Shown one piece after another: positions 31,416 to 47,226 of a stretch of 64,000 nt of DNA (within the stretch, counting starts at the first letter, position 1; every line of letters begins with the position of its first letter). Source of the stretch: Escherichia coli (GTDB lineage: Bacteria; Pseudomonadota; Gammaproteobacteria; Enterobacterales; Enterobacteriaceae). The notes under the pieces were generated by a model. That model searched no databases. It was given only the letters and a program-made list of their open reading frames with translations, and was not told the DNA's origin. The stretch lies in the NCBI RefSeq assembly GCF_024700885.2, contig NZ_CP117016.1. One strand, given 5' to 3'. The translations under genes were made by a program, and so were the position numbers.

Positions 31416-31826
31416 TGTCCTTCTCCTGCAAGAGAATTATTTTAATTTTCGCTTAATTCAGCGAAACCAAAGTAAAGTGGTCAAGCCCCGCGCATAGCGC
31501 AAGCTTAAGCAGAAGAAAGGACTAAAGCGCGTTGCGCCAGTGCTGCTCACCTACGAGCAAGATAGTGGATGAGGTACGAAGATGGGTAAATGTAGAAAAT
31601 AACGTCCTGAACAAATTGTCCATAATATTACAATTATCCGCAGTGTTGCTTCTCGTCATCGCGGATGATAATTGTCCTCGGTAGTTGAACACGCCTGATT
31701 TGTATCATAGCTTAAGAATTAACTCAAAATATTTTCACTTCTTTACCTGAGCGGTTTGATTTTCGTTATGATGACGGAGCGAAAAAGACATTATTATTAG
31801 CCAAGGAAGAAAAAACGGGGACAAGC

Positions 31827-31991
31827 ATGGCAAAGCCGATCATCACGCTCAATGGCCTAAAAATCGTCATTATGTTGGGAATGCTGGTCATTATTCTCTG
31901 CGGTATCCGTTTTGCCGCCGAGATCATCGTGCCGTTTATTCTCGCATTATTTATTGCTGTTATATATAACTTATTTCGCATAACACATTGA
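31827..31991 (+). pseudogene. tqsA: tqsA 5' fragment (45 native codons fused to 9 island-derived codons)
   Basis: [45 protein letters not shown] then IYNLFRITH*; the reading frame continues at 47218. Confidence 0.85.
31955..31963. repeat. attL core (tgctgttat)
   Basis: Identical 9-mer at both junctions of the interrupted tqsA frame. Confidence 0.7.
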
Positions 31992-32036
31992 TTTAATTAA
32001 ATAATTAACACCGCAAAAAGTGCCAAAAATCGCAAA

Positions 32037-32100
32037 ATGACTACACCAGTGACTACACCGTTCGGTGCACTGTATGAAACAACGTGGAACAAATAGACAC
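32037..32100 (+). repeat. left-end arm repeat (tgactacacc x2 then aacaacgtggaacaa)
   Basis: Near-identical to 47067-47135 in the same orientation. Confidence 0.7.
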
Positions 32101-32179
32101 AAGAAATATACAGGCGGATCATCTTTCCAGGGGGAAGCACACCAATTCATGAGGGGCGTTAATGTCGATATGGGGATCC

Positions 32180-32580
32180 CCACCTACCGGAATTTTTTTC
32201 CGGTTAAACGTTAATCAGGCTGGTGGGCTTTACCTGTTCGGTAGGTGTTATGATTATCGTAATACCTTTCCCCCAATGGGGTAAAAGCATCAACCGTAAC
32301 GAAAGTCGTTATGGTTGCCACTGATACCCCAAATTTGGGTATCACGAGTAAGCCCCAAAATCTGGGTGTTACTCTTACTACCCAAACTACGGGTAGTTTC
32401 CGTAGTTTCATGGTCGAGTTGCAGATCTGCAACTCCCCCATTAACCACAGGCGAATTTCCGCCTTCGGTCATTCCTTAATCATCTGCGTAATCATAATGA
32501 TTATTCAGCAAGCGCAATTTTGCGCTTTGCTTAAAGTTCAGCGAGTTACCGCGCCGACTTCCTCAAATTGAGGTTTCCGA
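32180..32580. other. palindrome-dense non-coding region (candidate packaging site or structured RNA)
   Basis: Inverted repeats read directly: cacctaccg/cggtaggtg, gatacccc-aaat-ttgggtatc, ctaccc/gggtag, ttgcagatctgcaa, gcgcaattttgcgc, cctcaaattgagg. Confidence 0.4.
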
Positions 32581-32689
32581 AAATATCAGCGGGTTAGCGA
32601 TTAAGCTGACCATTAATTAAACTGCGAAAATGTCGTAGTTGTGAGGGGTGTAGCCAACCCATTTTTGGGCCGTCGGGAATATCAACCAG

Positions 32690-32971
32690 TTACCGCCGCA
32701 ACCGCTCCGGCTTCTTCCAGTGGTACGTTATTTTCTCCTTCTCCCGATACATCTCCACGCGGCGACGGTAGGCCAGCAACTCAAGAACTCTGGTTCGTAT
32801 GTTGCGCATATCCACGCCATTAAGTTCTATACCATCACGGCGCATCACCTCAGCAACAACACGCGCATAGTTTTCGGCTGTCACGCTGTCCGGCTGCGTG
32901 GCCTGTTCGTCAGCCTGCTGGCTGATTCCGGCAACGCGGCGGATTAATCCCGTTATTTCGGCTTCTGTCAT
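32690..32971 (-). CDS. hypothetical protein (last gene of head/packaging operon)
   Basis: 93-aa ORF 13 bp downstream of terL on the same strand. Confidence 0.5.
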   Translation of the reverse strand: MTEAEITGLIRRVAGISQQADEQATQPDSVTAENYARVVAEVMRRDGIELNGVDMRNIRTRVLELLAYRRRVEMYREKEKITYHWKKPERLRR

Positions 32972-32984
32972 GCTGCTGACCTCA

Positions 32985-34646
32985 TTACACCCCGCTAAAT
33001 TCTTCCAGTTTCTGGCGGTGGCTGTCGCTTATATCAAAAGCAAAATCCTCATGCTCTGCCTGGAATGTACCAAACGCCATCAGCGCCGCCACGCTCGGGT
33101 CTATCTTGTTCGGTGATTTTTTCTTGTTCGGCTTGATATTGGCGTTCGCGTCACTCTGCATCACGACGTTACTCATCGACCAGGACAACACCGGATCGCC
33201 ACGATGCACAATCACCCTGCGGTTAACAAAAACTTCGAACGATTTCGCCGCCGGACTGAATCTGAGGTAGGTTTGCGGGAACGGCTCCACCTCAAAACCT
33301 GCCCCCTGTAATTGCGTTCTGAGATGCGTGGCGTTCCACGTATCAAAGCCCACCAGCCTGATATTAAATTTCTCCGCGTCCTGCATGATGTCATCTCTGA
33401 TCCGGTCGTAATCAATGCAGTCGCCAGGCGTTGTGCGTATCCAGCCTGCTTTAGCCCACTGACGATAGATGGCGCGGTTTTTATTGGCGGGGTTCTGTAG
33501 CTGAAATTCCGGCAGATAGTGACGGGAAACCAGCATAATGGTTTTACCGACCGGAAAGGCATAGCACACGCTGGAAATATCGCTGGTTGATGATAAGTCC
33601 AGCCCCGCGTAACACTCCTGGCCGTGTAAATCTTCCTCCGTGAACGTTCCGGCACACTCAGCCCATGCGCCGTTACCCATCCACGGGGTAGCCCCCTGGC
33701 ACCAGATATTAAATCGCTTTGTCATCATCTCCACCCACTGCGACGGAATACCCCGCGCTTTCTGGATGGTTGAGGCCAGTTTTTCACGATCGACGGAAAC
33801 ATCAATATTAGGGTTCGCCTTTATCCACATCGCCGGATCATCAACCTCGTTTTCGTCGTCCAGTTCGTAAATCAGTACAAAAATTGAATCGTTAACCTCT
33901 TCGCCGTCCAGGATCTGGCAGCAATAATCATAGTGCTGCTTACAGGCTGAAACGACGTTGCTGCCTGATGTGGTAATGGCAAATAACAGCCCTTCGGGAC
34001 GTGCGCCCATCCCCAGCTCAAGCGCGGAATAAACGCCGTTATCGGGGTGCAAGTGGTATTCGTCCACGATGGAAAGGCTGGGGTTTGTTCCCTCGATGGT
34101 TGCCGCTTTTGCTGCCAGCGGCTTTAACAGGCTGTTGCTTTTCGGGTGTATCACCTTATGCGCCTGAATATTCACCCGCCTGCGTAACGGTCGGGATAAA
34201 AGGCACATCTGACGCGCATCATCAAAGACGATCCGCGCCTGGTCACGGCTCACCGCTGCGGTGTAGATATCCTGCTGACCGTTCTCCATAATCAGAAACC
34301 AGTTAGCCAGAATCGCGGCGGTCGTGGATTTCGCATTTTTGCGCGGCACTTCGATAAAGGCGCTCGTGTATTTGCGCCGTCCGGTGGCCTTAACCTTAAA
34401 GCCGAGGATGCACGCAAAGGCGAACTGCTGCCACGGCTCCAGCTCAATGGGTCTGCCACGCATCGGTCCTTTTACGTGCGGGCACACCCTGGAAAAGGCA
34501 ATAAACCGCTCCACAACCTCACGATCGAACGTGTAAAGGGGGCTTTTAAGGTCCGAAAAGTACCGTTTAACGGCCTGTTTCAGCCGTTTACAGGCCGGAA
34601 TTTTGCCCGTTTTTACGTCTTCTGCGTACTTATTCCAGGCGGTCAA
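32985..34646 (-). CDS. terminase large subunit
   Basis: 553-aa ORF with an N-terminal ATPase-like region and a C-terminal nuclease-like acidic region typical of TerL; overlaps terS by 17 nt. Confidence 0.85.
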   Translation of the reverse strand: MTAWNKYAEDVKTGKIPACKRLKQAVKRYFSDLKSPLYTFDREVVERFIAFSRVCPHVKGPMRGRPIELEPWQQFAFACILGFKVKATGRRKYTSAFIEVPRKNAKSTTAAILANWFLIMENGQQDIYTAAVSRDQARIVFDDARQMCLLSRPLRRRVNIQAHKVIHPKSNSLLKPLAAKAATIEGTNPSLSIVDEYHLHPDNGVYSALELGMGARPEGLLFAITTSGSNVVSACKQHYDYCCQILDGEEVNDSIFVLIYELDDENEVDDPAMWIKANPNIDVSVDREKLASTIQKARGIPSQWVEMMTKRFNIWCQGATPWMGNGAWAECAGTFTEEDLHGQECYAGLDLSSTSDISSVCYAFPVGKTIMLVSRHYLPEFQLQNPANKNRAIYRQWAKAGWIRTTPGDCIDYDRIRDDIMQDAEKFNIRLVGFDTWNATHLRTQLQGAGFEVEPFPQTYLRFSPAAKSFEVFVNRRVIVHRGDPVLSWSMSNVVMQSDANANIKPNKKKSPNKIDPSVAALMAFGTFQAEHEDFAFDISDSHRQKLEEFSGV

Positions 34647-34986
34647 GCTCGTCCTCTTCTTCTGTTTCCGGTGGGTTTTTACGGCGGCTTATCGGGTCAA
34701 AACCGAGCAAGGAGGCCATTTTTATCATCACCCTTTCAGCGTCTGATTTCGCGCTTAATGCGGGGTTTCTGCTCTCGCCGCCCTGACTGTTAACAATGCT
34801 GAACCCGCGCGCCGCAAGGTCTGCGACGGCTTTCCGGTAAATGGAGTAGTTGACACAATACAGTTCCAGATTGCTCCAGTCGGCGGGGGTCAGGTCTCCC
34901 CGTTCCGCAAGCTGCCGCGATTTTTCCCGCCACTGCTTCACGGCGATGTCATCCAGGTAGGCGGGGGCTTTCGGTGGTCTTGCCAT
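34630..34986 (-). CDS. terminase small subunit (P27-family-like)
   Basis: 118-aa ORF with the W…LTxAD…YC…NPA pattern typical of P27-type TerS; directly upstream of terL. Confidence 0.65.
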   Translation of the reverse strand: MARPPKAPAYLDDIAVKQWREKSRQLAERGDLTPADWSNLELYCVNYSIYRKAVADLAARGFSIVNSQGGESRNPALSAKSDAERVMIKMASLLGFDPISRRKNPPETEEEDELDRLE

Positions 34987-35108
34987 GCTTATTTTTCGTC
35001 AGATTATTTTTCAAAAAATTCCCGTGCATAAAAATTTGAGGAGGCGTTCGGTGCCCGGCGGGGTCGGGTTTGTCCTGAAAACGCCCCCCACCCCGTCATA
35101 CAGCCTCA

Positions 35109-35291
35109 TCAGCGATTGCGGAAACATTCCATAACCTCGCGGTCACGGTCGGTTAATCGCTTCGCTGTGATGCGTTCTGCGCGTCCTGACGCTTTATCTT
35201 TATGCCCTGTTTCCTGTGTCTTCCATGCGTCACGCTGCCTTATAAGTCCACGGATAAGGCGGTTTTGTTCCCGCTCATTCATCAGCGTCAT
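35109..35291 (-). CDS. possible small ORF between HNH and terS
   Basis: ~60 codons (MTLMNEREQNRLIRGL…) within the tail of a longer track ORF; could instead be non-coding cos-region DNA. Confidence 0.25.
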   Translation of the reverse strand: MTLMNEREQNRLIRGLIRQRDAWKTQETGHKDKASGRAERITAKRLTDRDREVMECFRNR

Positions 35292-35715
35292 ACATCCAGT
35301 TATTGCGGTTAGCGGCCCGTTCTTCCTCTTCACGAAATCCACCTGCGGCACGCTTGCTTTTTGTTGCCGGATCAAGCCATTTCGTTTTCTGGTTATGACA
35401 CGCCTGGCACAATGGTTGATGGTTCCATTCGGGCCAGAAGAGAACATCATCACCGCCATTAATCGGGATAATGTGATCCACCACCACGGCGGGCGTATAT
35501 ATCCCCTTCTCAAGGCATCGCACGCATAACGGGTTTTTACTCAGATACATGGCGCGGTATTTGTCCCACTGTCTGGAATATCCACGCGCGCGGCGGTGTC
35601 CTCGTCTGGCATCCTCTGCACGCCATGCCGCCCGCCTGTGCTCCTCACACTTGCCGGATTTAACGCGCCTGTTACAGCCTGGTTCTGTGCATCGTCTTAA
35701 TGGTTGCCACGGCAT
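35275..35715 (-). CDS. HNH endonuclease (terminase-associated)
   Basis: CxxC…HxxP…N…H…CxxCH arrangement in a 146-aa ORF next to terS. Confidence 0.8.
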   Translation of the reverse strand: MPWQPLRRCTEPGCNRRVKSGKCEEHRRAAWRAEDARRGHRRARGYSRQWDKYRAMYLSKNPLCVRCLEKGIYTPAVVVDHIIPINGGDDVLFWPEWNHQPLCQACHNQKTKWLDPATKSKRAAGGFREEEERAANRNNWMYDADE

Positions 35716-36011
35716 CAGTACACCCCCACATCACGGTAAGCCGTCCAGAGTGCGCCTATCGTCATGGGTACGCGTGTTTTTGCGTTATCCGCGACAATCT
35801 GGCGATTTTCATACAGGTGAGCGATAAACATCATGCAGCCAATCTTTATGGCTGGCGTGAACTCCAGCCCGTCATCAAAGCGCCTGCCTATGTGTATCTG
35901 GCACGCCTCAAGCGATGCGGCAATGTATCCGCTGATTAACTGGTCTTCATCGTCGCCATCGATGCGGCAATGGAGTTTCACTTCTTCCAGGGTGATAAGT
36001 TCTTCTGTCAT
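35715..36011 (-). CDS. gp6-like head-tail connector / head completion protein
   Basis: 98-aa ORF with N-terminus …TLEEVKLHCRIDGDDEDQLI… characteristic of this family. Confidence 0.6.
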   Translation of the reverse strand: MTEELITLEEVKLHCRIDGDDEDQLISGYIAASLEACQIHIGRRFDDGLEFTPAIKIGCMMFIAHLYENRQIVADNAKTRVPMTIGALWTAYRDVGVY

Positions 36012-36346
36012 TTTTCCGCGCCCTCACGACAAAGAATTTCAAGGCGTGTCCTGGCGGCATCCGGCAGCGGCTGCCCGATGATATTCAGTACACGCCCCGC
36101 CAGCGGCCCCGTACTGACCTTTATCCGGCTGGTGGCGTTGATGTCCTTCCGGTACCGTATCCAGATCCTTACGGTACCAATCGCCAGCTCTGCGCCCGAT
36201 GAAATGGCCTCCTTGCTGCTGACCATGTTCACGCTTGCCCAGAGTGTGTGACCGTCCTCCCACGTTTCGAGTATTTCGCCGGTTATATCCCTGGTCTGTT
36301 TCAGGGTCTGAATCGTTATCCTGTCACGCAGTCGCCCTATGTTCAT
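36008..36346 (-). CDS. head closure / head-tail adaptor protein
   Basis: ~112 aa from the internal Met of the track ORF; position between portal and gp6-like gene. Confidence 0.5.
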   Translation of the reverse strand: MNIGRLRDRITIQTLKQTRDITGEILETWEDGHTLWASVNMVSSKEAISSGAELAIGTVRIWIRYRKDINATSRIKVSTGPLAGRVLNIIGQPLPDAARTRLEILCREGAEK

Positions 36347-37554
36347 TCCGGTTTTTCTCCCTCGCTGATTTTTACTTCCTGTTTCCATGCCTGGCTGAAC
36401 TCATCACCACCATCACGCGGTGACAGACCTTCACGTTCGCGGGCTTCGTTCGGACACATAACGCCGGATTTGATGCCGCGCTCATAGGTGGCAAAGCGTT
36501 CGCCAGGTGTGGCCCGTAACAGGTCCGCGCTGTCAAACTCCACCTGATACCGGATACCAGGTACAGGCGAGGCCACCAGCAGGGCGTTTTTTATCTGCTG
36601 CTCAAAGTTCGCCAGCCACGGGCGCATCGTCATGGTGAGAAATGCGCGGCTTGCCTCGCTGAAATTGCTGTAGGTGCTGTTGCTGTATTCCTGCAAAAAA
36701 ATCGGCGAGACGTTGAACATTCGGGCGATGTCTTCAATGGTGAAGCGACGGGAGGCCAGCCATTCAGCATCCTGATTACTCATGCCCAGCTGCTGATAGC
36801 TCATACCCCCTTCAAGGATGGGCGTTTTTCCGGCGTTTCTGGCCCCTTTGTAGCGTTCCAGTGCGGCTAATGCCTGTTTGCCCTTCACGCCGTCCAGCCA
36901 TTCGCCTGACGTGATAACCCCTGCCGCCATCATGCCATCACGCATCACGCTCGCGCCGTGGCGTTGTTGGGCCAGCCCAAGCCCCAGCGATTCGCGGCAG
37001 ATGGTTACAGGTGAGCACCCCATAAAGCCGTCATCCGTGGAGTAACGAAGGTGAAGTACTTCCCACGGTAAATAGTTGCGGGTGTTTCCGGTGTAGGCGT
37101 CAGTGATGCAGTAGCGCCAGTTGTGTTCGCCTGTCTGCTCCACGTTCACCGACTGCGGCGGGTAAGGATGTAAAGCCGCCGGAAAACCATCACGCCCCCA
37201 CTGAATCACCGCATAAGCATTACCGTTTAACAGGCAGTGGCGGATCATCATTCGCTTAAACTGGTAGGGGGTTTGCCATGCGTTCGGGCGCTCGTTGAGG
37301 ATGTGATCGACCGGATGAGAATCAAGCCACTCGCGGGCCTCCTTCCCCTTCTCATTGCGTACCAGGTACAGGTAACACGGCATGGTAGCCACCGCCTCAG
37401 AGATGACCGTCACGGCGTTCATGACGGCGGGCAGTGATTCCGCTGTCCCCGATGATACGTACTCACCCGCCCCCGTGTTCGATGTGCCAGCCAGCGCCAT
37501 AAATTCATCCAGCGTCATGCTGCGCTGCTCTTTTTTTCTTCTGAAAGGCCACAT
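36343..37554 (-). CDS. portal protein (HK97 family)
   Basis: 403-aa ORF; size and position next to the prohead protease. Confidence 0.85.
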   Translation of the reverse strand: MWPFRRKKEQRSMTLDEFMALAGTSNTGAGEYVSSGTAESLPAVMNAVTVISEAVATMPCYLYLVRNEKGKEAREWLDSHPVDHILNERPNAWQTPYQFKRMMIRHCLLNGNAYAVIQWGRDGFPAALHPYPPQSVNVEQTGEHNWRYCITDAYTGNTRNYLPWEVLHLRYSTDDGFMGCSPVTICRESLGLGLAQQRHGASVMRDGMMAAGVITSGEWLDGVKGKQALAALERYKGARNAGKTPILEGGMSYQQLGMSNQDAEWLASRRFTIEDIARMFNVSPIFLQEYSNSTYSNFSEASRAFLTMTMRPWLANFEQQIKNALLVASPVPGIRYQVEFDSADLLRATPGERFATYERGIKSGVMCPNEAREREGLSPRDGGDEFSQAWKQEVKISEGEKPE

Positions 37555-47066: not shown

Positions 47067-47135
47067 GTGACTACACCAGTGACTACACCGATCGTTGCAC
47101 AAAGGGCTACAACGTGAAACAAGCTGGAACAAGGA
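47067..47135 (+). repeat. right-end arm repeat (gtgactacacc x2 then acaacgtgaaacaa)
   Basis: Matches 32037-32100; lies between int and attR. Confidence 0.7.
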
Positions 47136-47217: not shown

Positions 47218-47226
47218 TGCTGTTAT
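47218..47226. repeat. attR core (tgctgttat)
   Basis: Direct repeat of 31955-31963. Confidence 0.7.

Follow-up and report, generated by a model that had tools for sequence, protein, structure and literature searches.

A conserved small gene and an adjoining Rha/IHF-type repeat array at the int-distal end of Escherichia coli phage satellites

What is a small gene doing at the very end of the capsid and packaging operon of a phage satellite? The window analysed here, a 64,000-nt stretch of an Escherichia coli genome, contains an open reading frame of 93 codons at 32690–32971 on the minus strand, the strand of the whole operon, hereafter called ORF93. The original prediction had described it as an extra gene appended to terL at the end of a satellite's late operon, with a possible cargo or interference function. 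The coordinates proved exact, with the start ATG at 32971–32969, the stop TAA at 32692–32690 and a ribosome-binding site GAGG at 32980–32983, 8 nt 5′ of the ATG, all read in the sequence. The upstream cistron is terL (32985–34646, minus strand), which matches the Pfam families TerL_nuclease (E 1e-50) and TerL_ATPase (E 1.3e-25). Its stop codon lies at 32985–32987 and ORF93 starts 13 nt further on, with the ribosome-binding site inside this gap. No sigma-70-like promoter was found between terL and ORF93 on the minus strand, and ORF93 therefore appears to be co-transcribed with terL as the final cistron of the late operon, as had been proposed.

The operon belongs to a 15.3-kb island that splits tqsA and is flanked by 9-bp repeats. 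The att core repeat TGCTGTTAT, the longest exact word common to both junctions, lies at 31955–31963, at the int-distal junction in tqsA, and again at 47218–47226, and joining the island flanks restores an intact TqsA reading frame. All genes of the island point in one direction, from int through alpA, an Icd-like gene, DUF4222, pri-rep, ssb and perC to the late genes, which run in the order major capsid, prohead protease, portal, head closure, connector, HNH, terS, terL and ORF93. Tail and lysis genes are absent. By gene set, att repeats and size, we class the tqsA element as a predicted capsid-forming PICI (cf-PICI), and in this respect the original prediction of a satellite was right. The 601 nt of the window that we queried are identical to E. 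coli strain FORC_069, and the surrounding gene order is shared with that strain. About 80–130 bp inside both island ends lies a doubled motif, CGGTGTAGTCACTGGTGTAGTCA (32038–32060 and 47068–47090, minus strand), identified from the sequences and from a repeat match in locus L001, which is probably an integrase arm-type site.

ORF93 is a genuine, satellite-specific gene under purifying selection and not a phage gene. Among 45 distinct alleles from the fetched loci, the median pairwise dN/dS is 0.20 (916 pairs) and the variable sites are distributed 26/21/51 over codon positions 1/2/3. In the last 14 codons, changes at the three positions number 1/0/11; the invariant C-terminal Y-x-WKKPERLRR tail is therefore kept as protein, not as DNA. 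Homologues with 66% and 45% protein identity retain the same frame and length. The gene is found in 1566 of 5426 complete E. coli genomes (29%), with up to 6 copies per genome, and these copies are always annotated as ‘hypothetical protein’. ORF93 is matched by 1028 protein clusters, and its family is narrow, with 36 representatives at 50% clustering that are mostly variants of one sequence; apart from close relatives and frameshift variants, an exhaustive search of representatives returned nothing but two spurious giant proteins. Neither a tblastn search of 50,697 phage records nor a species-wide search of representative genomes from 100,044 species found a relative. ORF93 looks like a backbone gene of an Escherichia/Shigella lineage of AlpA/PerC-type PICIs, common but not universal.

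The context of the gene was surveyed at 83 related loci. At all of them ORF93 is the last gene before the int-distal end, followed by 470–850 nt of non-coding DNA up to att, and it is the upstream module that varies. The full HK97-type set of a cf-PICI is present at 24 of the 83 loci, where the gap before ORF93 is 13–16 nt, and about 50 carry lambda E/D-type capsid and decoration genes, with a TerS/Rpp-like gene before ORF93. Two further types end in ORF93, one with a ClpP-capsid fusion alone and one with an unrelated late module. At one locus (L047 7318–9237), little more than one 639-aa fusion of ClpP protease and major capsid makes up the late module, and the ORF93 homologue comes next. As the same gene ends islands with four unrelated late modules, it is neither variable cargo nor specific to cf-PICIs or to the terL operon; the description of an ‘extra’ gene of this operon thus has to be given up. 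One related island (L096) lacks ORF93.

Several of these islands have features of their own around the gene. In lambda-type islands, ORF93 is usually preceded by its own spacer of approximately 258–260 nt. Within this spacer lie a lambda-like cosN, reversely oriented, and a strong hairpin with a T-run; by eye the latter resembles a terminator, but it was not called as one by the scan. In a lambda E/D-type PICI of E. coli strain War (L002 11745–12001), the reversed cosN, AGGTCGCCGCCC, lies between the TerS/Rpp-like gene and the ORF93 homologue, which starts on the cosQ side at a distance of 60 nt from the cohesive-end site. At L067, L079 and L083–L087 there are four GTGAC repeats with an exact 10-bp spacing, then a hairpin with a T-run. 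They begin approximately 10–45 nt, or a longer distance, 3′ of the ORF93 homologue, either in place of the array described below or beyond it, and are absent from this window. Such phasing is typically seen in binding sites of the excisionase type. In one type of island with ORF93, a ProQ/FinO-domain protein (L004 3960–4490) takes the place of the SSB encoded by the others, a hint of RNA-based regulation in these satellites.

The ORF93 protein (93 aa, 11.0 kDa, pI 9.8) is bipolar in charge, with an acidic N-terminal half (pI 4.8) and a basic C-terminal half (pI 10.3). Its AlphaFold (AF2) model contains helices at residues 3–13, 28–45 and 52–82 and a disordered linker, with a pLDDT of 74 overall and 86–92 in the core; a homodimer model of two copies joined by a Gly-Ser linker has a pLDDT of 43. 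Remote-homology searches and structure prediction, the checks suggested with the original prediction, yielded this three-helix model and a full-length match to PHROG 1561 (residues 1–93 against profile positions 1–93 of 93, E 2.9e-56), but neither a named family nor an informative fold match. PHROG 1561 and 7271, the only PHROGs that match, are both of unknown function. Pfam has no family for ORF93 at E ≤ 0.1 or at E ≤ 10, NCBIfam, PADLOC and PDB-sequence profiles provide no named family for the protein or its relatives, and fold searches with the model return generic helical hairpins only. The protein has no homology or fold match to known DNA- or RNA-binding proteins and no fold similarity to the Rop four-helix-bundle dimer or the FinO/ProQ domain. 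Pfam and NCBIfam detect no excisionase or RDF signature (HTH_17, Xis, winged-helix), the model has no wing, and hhalign finds no relation between ORF93 and the Rha/Roi proteins.

The reading that we prefer, tentatively and with a probability of roughly 0.3, is that the satellite uses ORF93 at its int-distal control region as a small regulatory or architectural factor that binds nucleic acid. Nucleic-acid binding is suggested by the charge and shape of the protein, and the site of action by the position of its gene. A regulatory role agrees with the constant int-distal location, the bipolar charge, the helical model, the independence of the late module and the placement of the stop codon inside the first repeat of the array that follows. 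It is at odds with the lack of a match to nucleic-acid-binding proteins, with the occurrence of gene and array without each other and with the capsid-related late genes that lie directly upstream of ORF93 in every carrier island.

These upstream capsid genes would be expected if ORF93 were instead an accessory of late morphogenesis or packaging, small and basic, that aids DNA packaging, its termination or head stabilisation. Its place at the end of the operon, 13 nt behind terL and with a ribosome-binding site of its own, and the 60 nt that separate its start from a lambda-like cosN in cos-type islands, point the same way. However, no head-completion, connector, terminase or scaffold family matches. 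The head-completion and head–tail connector families (Phage_HCP PF05521, Phage_connect_1 PF05135 and the PHROG connector classes) gave no hit in the Pfam and PHROG profile searches, and assignment to a standard head-completion family, the outcome named as contrary to the original prediction, was not found. The tqsA island has its own HCP gene (36008–36388) and connector gene (35715–36011). A terminase-small-subunit profile does not match ORF93 either, and hence by profile it is not a TerS-derived Rpp. Furthermore, a single protein stands behind four unrelated capsid and packaging systems and is absent from all of the 50,697 phage records searched, and the cos site of the cf-PICI is expected, from the HK97 layout, in the HNH–terS gap, that is, upstream of terS and away from ORF93. 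This gap (window 34986–35275, minus strand; L001 13810–13992) contains a 60-aa ORF annotated by PGAP as WP_000174068. A transfer phenotype bears on the same question. According to the accessible parts of the published work, a mutant of ‘hypothetical gene 1792’ transfers poorly and the capsid gene is gene 1786. We considered ORF93 as gene 1792, but this numbering, taken with the gene order of the O157:H7 island, indicates that gene 1792 is probably the 60-aa HNH–terS ORF; by the same count ORF93 would be gene 1795, which does not occur in those parts of the published texts. The transfer defect would then say nothing for ORF93 in packaging, and we consider such a role doubtful.

A moron-like accessory gene at the end of the operon, serving helper interference or benefiting the host, is less probable still. 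In the accessible text of the cf-PICI literature, what follows the packaging module is called variable and ‘expected to encode immune systems’, ORF93 has its own upstream spacer in many islands, and some related islands lack it. Nevertheless, the gene is one conserved family present in 29% of genomes, and its dN/dS of 0.20 is that of a gene under purifying selection and not of variable cargo, contrary to the first proposal. The PADLOC-DB defence models do not match any of three ORF93 family members at E ≤ 1, and in the tqsA island the gene has no promoter of its own.

We turn to the DNA on which ORF93 would act. Starting inside the last ORF93 codons, an array of approximately 48-nt units occupies 32505–32698 on the minus strand, recognized as a family of direct repeats that lie 96 and 48 nt apart. 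In each unit a conserved head is followed by a palindrome that varies and is AT-rich at its centre, and then by a tail with GGCG at its end; the heads follow the pattern [CG]G[CG]TAAC-NN-G-N-TGAT... (all positions below are on the minus strand unless stated). Head 1, GCGGTAACTGGTTGA (32682–32696), contains the ORF93 stop codon TAA, and its complement TATCAACCAGTTA (32680–32692, plus strand) is a perfect match to the IHF consensus WATCARNNNNTTR. The palindrome of unit 1, GGCCCAAAAATGGGTT (32656–32671), also appears as a hairpin in the predicted fold. Head 2, TCGCTAACCCGCTGA (32586–32600), is assigned by membership of the repeat family and again has a perfect IHF consensus in its complement, TATCAGCGGGTTA (32584–32596, plus strand); it is followed by the palindrome CCTCAATTTGAGG (32561–32573), which matches roi. 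Head 3, GCGGTAACTCGCTGA (32538–32552), has an imperfect IHF consensus, and its palindrome GCAAAGCGCAAAATTGCGCTTGC (32508–32530) matches a Rha-family gene of phi191. The two perfect IHF-consensus matches compare with about 0.01 expected per 200 nt, and 44 of 61 heads in related islands match the full consensus; by this measure, the heads are predicted IHF sites. The motif does not occur elsewhere in the 64-kb window.

The array is the fast-changing part of the island end. Related islands have 0 to 6 units in varying order, with a modal spacing of 48 nt. Their palindromes comprise 25 different sequences, which by eye fall into about a dozen types, and the content differs even between otherwise nearly identical islands. 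Arrays are also seen at L003 15395–15840, L004 10255–10470 and L096 4040–4090. ORF93 occurs without any unit at 6 of 38 distinct right ends, and L096 is the one island with a unit and no ORF93; each can be found alone, and a functional link between them is therefore only a possibility. We found no earlier account of the array in the accessible literature. Several familiar classes of repeat do not fit it. Sites for cos or TerS are rejected as the array is common to islands with different packaging systems and the lambda-type cosN lies on the other side of ORF93. For a replication origin the position is unfavourable, with pri-rep 8 kb away. A CRISPR array, with identical repeats and non-palindromic unique spacers, is rejected too, as the constant part here is approximately 20 nt with mismatches and the variable part is itself palindromic, at a period of 48 nt. 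The repeat RNA of a type III toxin–antitoxin system (ToxIN-like) is contradicted by units that differ from one another, by their location after the ORF and by the lack of a ToxN-like match for ORF93.

The variable palindromes have counterparts in phage regulatory genes. Seven unit types match seven different phage gene alleles, all in antisense and all at codons ~41–73: CCTCAATTTGAGG in roi of HK620, H-19B, Kapi1 and many Stx phages, TTCGCCA..GGCGAA in a gene of an Stx2 phage (EH2201), CAGCCATTGGCGG in phiP27 L14, CCACAGnCTGTGG in a gene of an Stx1 phage (14744), CCCCCATTGGGGG in roi of VT2-Sakai and HK629, AGCGCAAAATTGCGCT in Rha of phi191 and AGCTCATTTTTGAGCT in ST64B sb54. Six of the seven matched genes have a Phage_pRha domain and one has KilA-N. 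Within the window, unit 2 is approximately 90% identical, in antisense, to roi codons ~41–55 of HK620, H-19B, Kapi1 and Stx phages, unit 3 matches, also in antisense, inside the Rha-family gene of phi191 and relatives, and a tblastn search with HK620 Roi finds a single matching region, 32555–32608. The E-values of single matches are weak (5e-4 to 2); we draw the link between the array and these regulators because all matches share one spot and one orientation in related genes.

In the phages themselves, the matched site, compared among five Roi-type proteins, is a hypervariable stretch between highly conserved flanks, and the phage alleles carry their own palindromes there, of up to 19 perfect nucleotides or about 25–27 imperfect ones. 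These palindromes sit in the segment after the predicted helix-turn-helix, presumably the wing. In phage roi/rha genes at L089 1458–1568 and L090–L093, an allele-specific palindrome at codons ~41–55 adjoins an IHF consensus in the INNLG codons. In work attributed to Clerget and Boccard in 1996, Roi of HK022 is said to bind a site inside its own roi gene, beside an IHF site, and to be autoregulatory. The coding DNA of phage rha/roi may double as a cis-element of the regulator that it encodes, and the satellite array looks like a library of helper-regulator operators or, alternatively, of antisense sequences.

If the second alternative were correct, the array would be the 3′ part of the ORF93 message, its hairpin RNAs antisense to helper rha/roi mRNAs, and ORF93 a Rom- or FinO-like helper. 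Antirepressor genes are classic antisense targets, as with P22 sar and P1 c4. Read in the direction of ORF93 transcription, all seven matched unit types are antisense to their phage gene, the hairpin arms of each unit co-vary, and beside the stems G-T mismatches outnumber A-C mismatches by 48 to 25, counts in which the units are not independent; the uniform orientation, co-varying stems and G-T excess argue for sense-strand hairpins or antisense RNA. The basic helical hairpin modelled for ORF93 and the ProQ/FinO-domain protein of one island type are also consistent with this. On the other side, the satellite heads retain the IHF-consensus positions and deviate from the phage codons at the four free positions, which a DNA site fits better than pairing does. 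With no Rop or FinO fold match for ORF93, and with ORF93 and array separable, an RNA module of this kind seems a long shot. That ORF93 is a chance frame over constrained non-coding DNA is close to negligible: the final 47 nt are 89% identical even to the homologue with 45% protein identity and the array begins within the gene, but the dN/dS, the prevalence of third-position changes, tail included, and the retention of frame and length at 45–66% protein identity rule it out.

Beyond the array lies a second candidate element, a conserved structured non-coding block of 121 nt (32318–32438, minus strand), supported by comparison with locus L008 and by its fold z-scores of -6.8 and -6.3. It is predicted to form several nested hairpins and is more conserved than ORF93, being 92% identical in L008, versus 66% protein identity for ORF93 there. 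A perfect 20-nt palindrome with a central GATC, GAGTTGCAGATCTGCAACTC, lies inside it at 32416–32435. Rfam has no match over 31700–33100, and no phage match to the block was found.

Returning to ORF93 as a regulatory or architectural factor, the protein would be translated from the end of the late capsid-packaging transcript in the cf-PICI, as a soluble three-helix protein and not a component of the virion or the packaging machinery. It would act on the region 3′ of its gene, with the IHF/Rha-type array, the structured block and the att arm, or alternatively on the transcript running through this control region. A bolder and distinctly improbable extension holds that the satellite end is a rapidly evolving library whose cis-elements were copied from the hypervariable site in helper Rha/Roi- and KilA-N-type genes, with ORF93 as a partner factor, a spacer-like record of helpers kept without CRISPR machinery. 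The helper regulator that matches a unit would then be captured there along with IHF, or the unit would pair with the mRNA of that regulator.

Nearly one third of complete E. coli genomes contain ORF93, a core part, as yet without a name, of a very common class of mobile element. The gene by itself is of modest interest, and it is the adjoining Rha/IHF-type array that is most worth following. The array ties these satellites to a specific family of helper-phage regulators, Rha/Roi, and so bears on how Gram-negative PICIs recognize and manipulate their helpers. The allele-matched units predict which phage regulator binds which unit, and further predictions contrast regulator titration with gene silencing and relate array content to helper range. 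If the units do form a library, a satellite could sense or sabotage many different helpers, and a hypervariable wing-coding segment of rha/roi that serves as a cis-element would bear on the regulation of lambdoid phages themselves.

Among known systems, the tqsA island has the same gene order and families as EcCIEDL933, a cf-PICI according to the accessible text of two preprints (bioRxiv 10.1101/2022.09.08.507074 and 10.1101/2025.02.11.637232), and the EcCIEDL933-like island of O157:H7 (L003) likewise has the ORF93 gene after terL. The insertion sites differ, with tqsA here versus roxA/phoQ for the EcCIEDL933 type. The region after terL is treated as variable or accessory in the accessible parts of these cf-PICI papers (10.1101/2022.09.08.507074, 10.1101/2025.02.11.637232), in which the ORF93 gene is not discussed. 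The SaPI proteins Ppi, PtiA/M and CpmB and the E. coli PICI protein Rpp (PMC6739421) are also small proteins from a satellite late operon, but they have no sequence or fold similarity to ORF93. These interference proteins each fit one helper packaging system, whereas ORF93 is common to four different late modules.

Similar to the RDFs Xis, Cox/Apl and AlpA, ORF93 is small, basic and encoded beside an attachment arm. Unlike them, it is int-distal, belongs to an island that already has alpA and has no HTH_17, winged-helix or other RDF signature. P22 sar, P1/P7 c4, P4 CI RNA, ColE1 Rom and F FinO resemble the locus in that the array hairpins are antisense to a regulator gene of the Bro network and lie beside a small basic helical protein. 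They differ in that the array, known here from sequence alone, has no Rfam match and keeps the IHF consensus instead of full complementarity, and in that ORF93 has no match to their folds. The closest likeness in arrangement is to the site reported for HK022 roi, as both have an IHF-consensus site beside a palindrome and the satellite units match inside Rha/Roi- or KilA-N-type genes. As opposed to that site, the satellite sites lie outside any rha gene, stand in tandem and bring together several phage alleles, and their binding by the cognate regulators and IHF is predicted.
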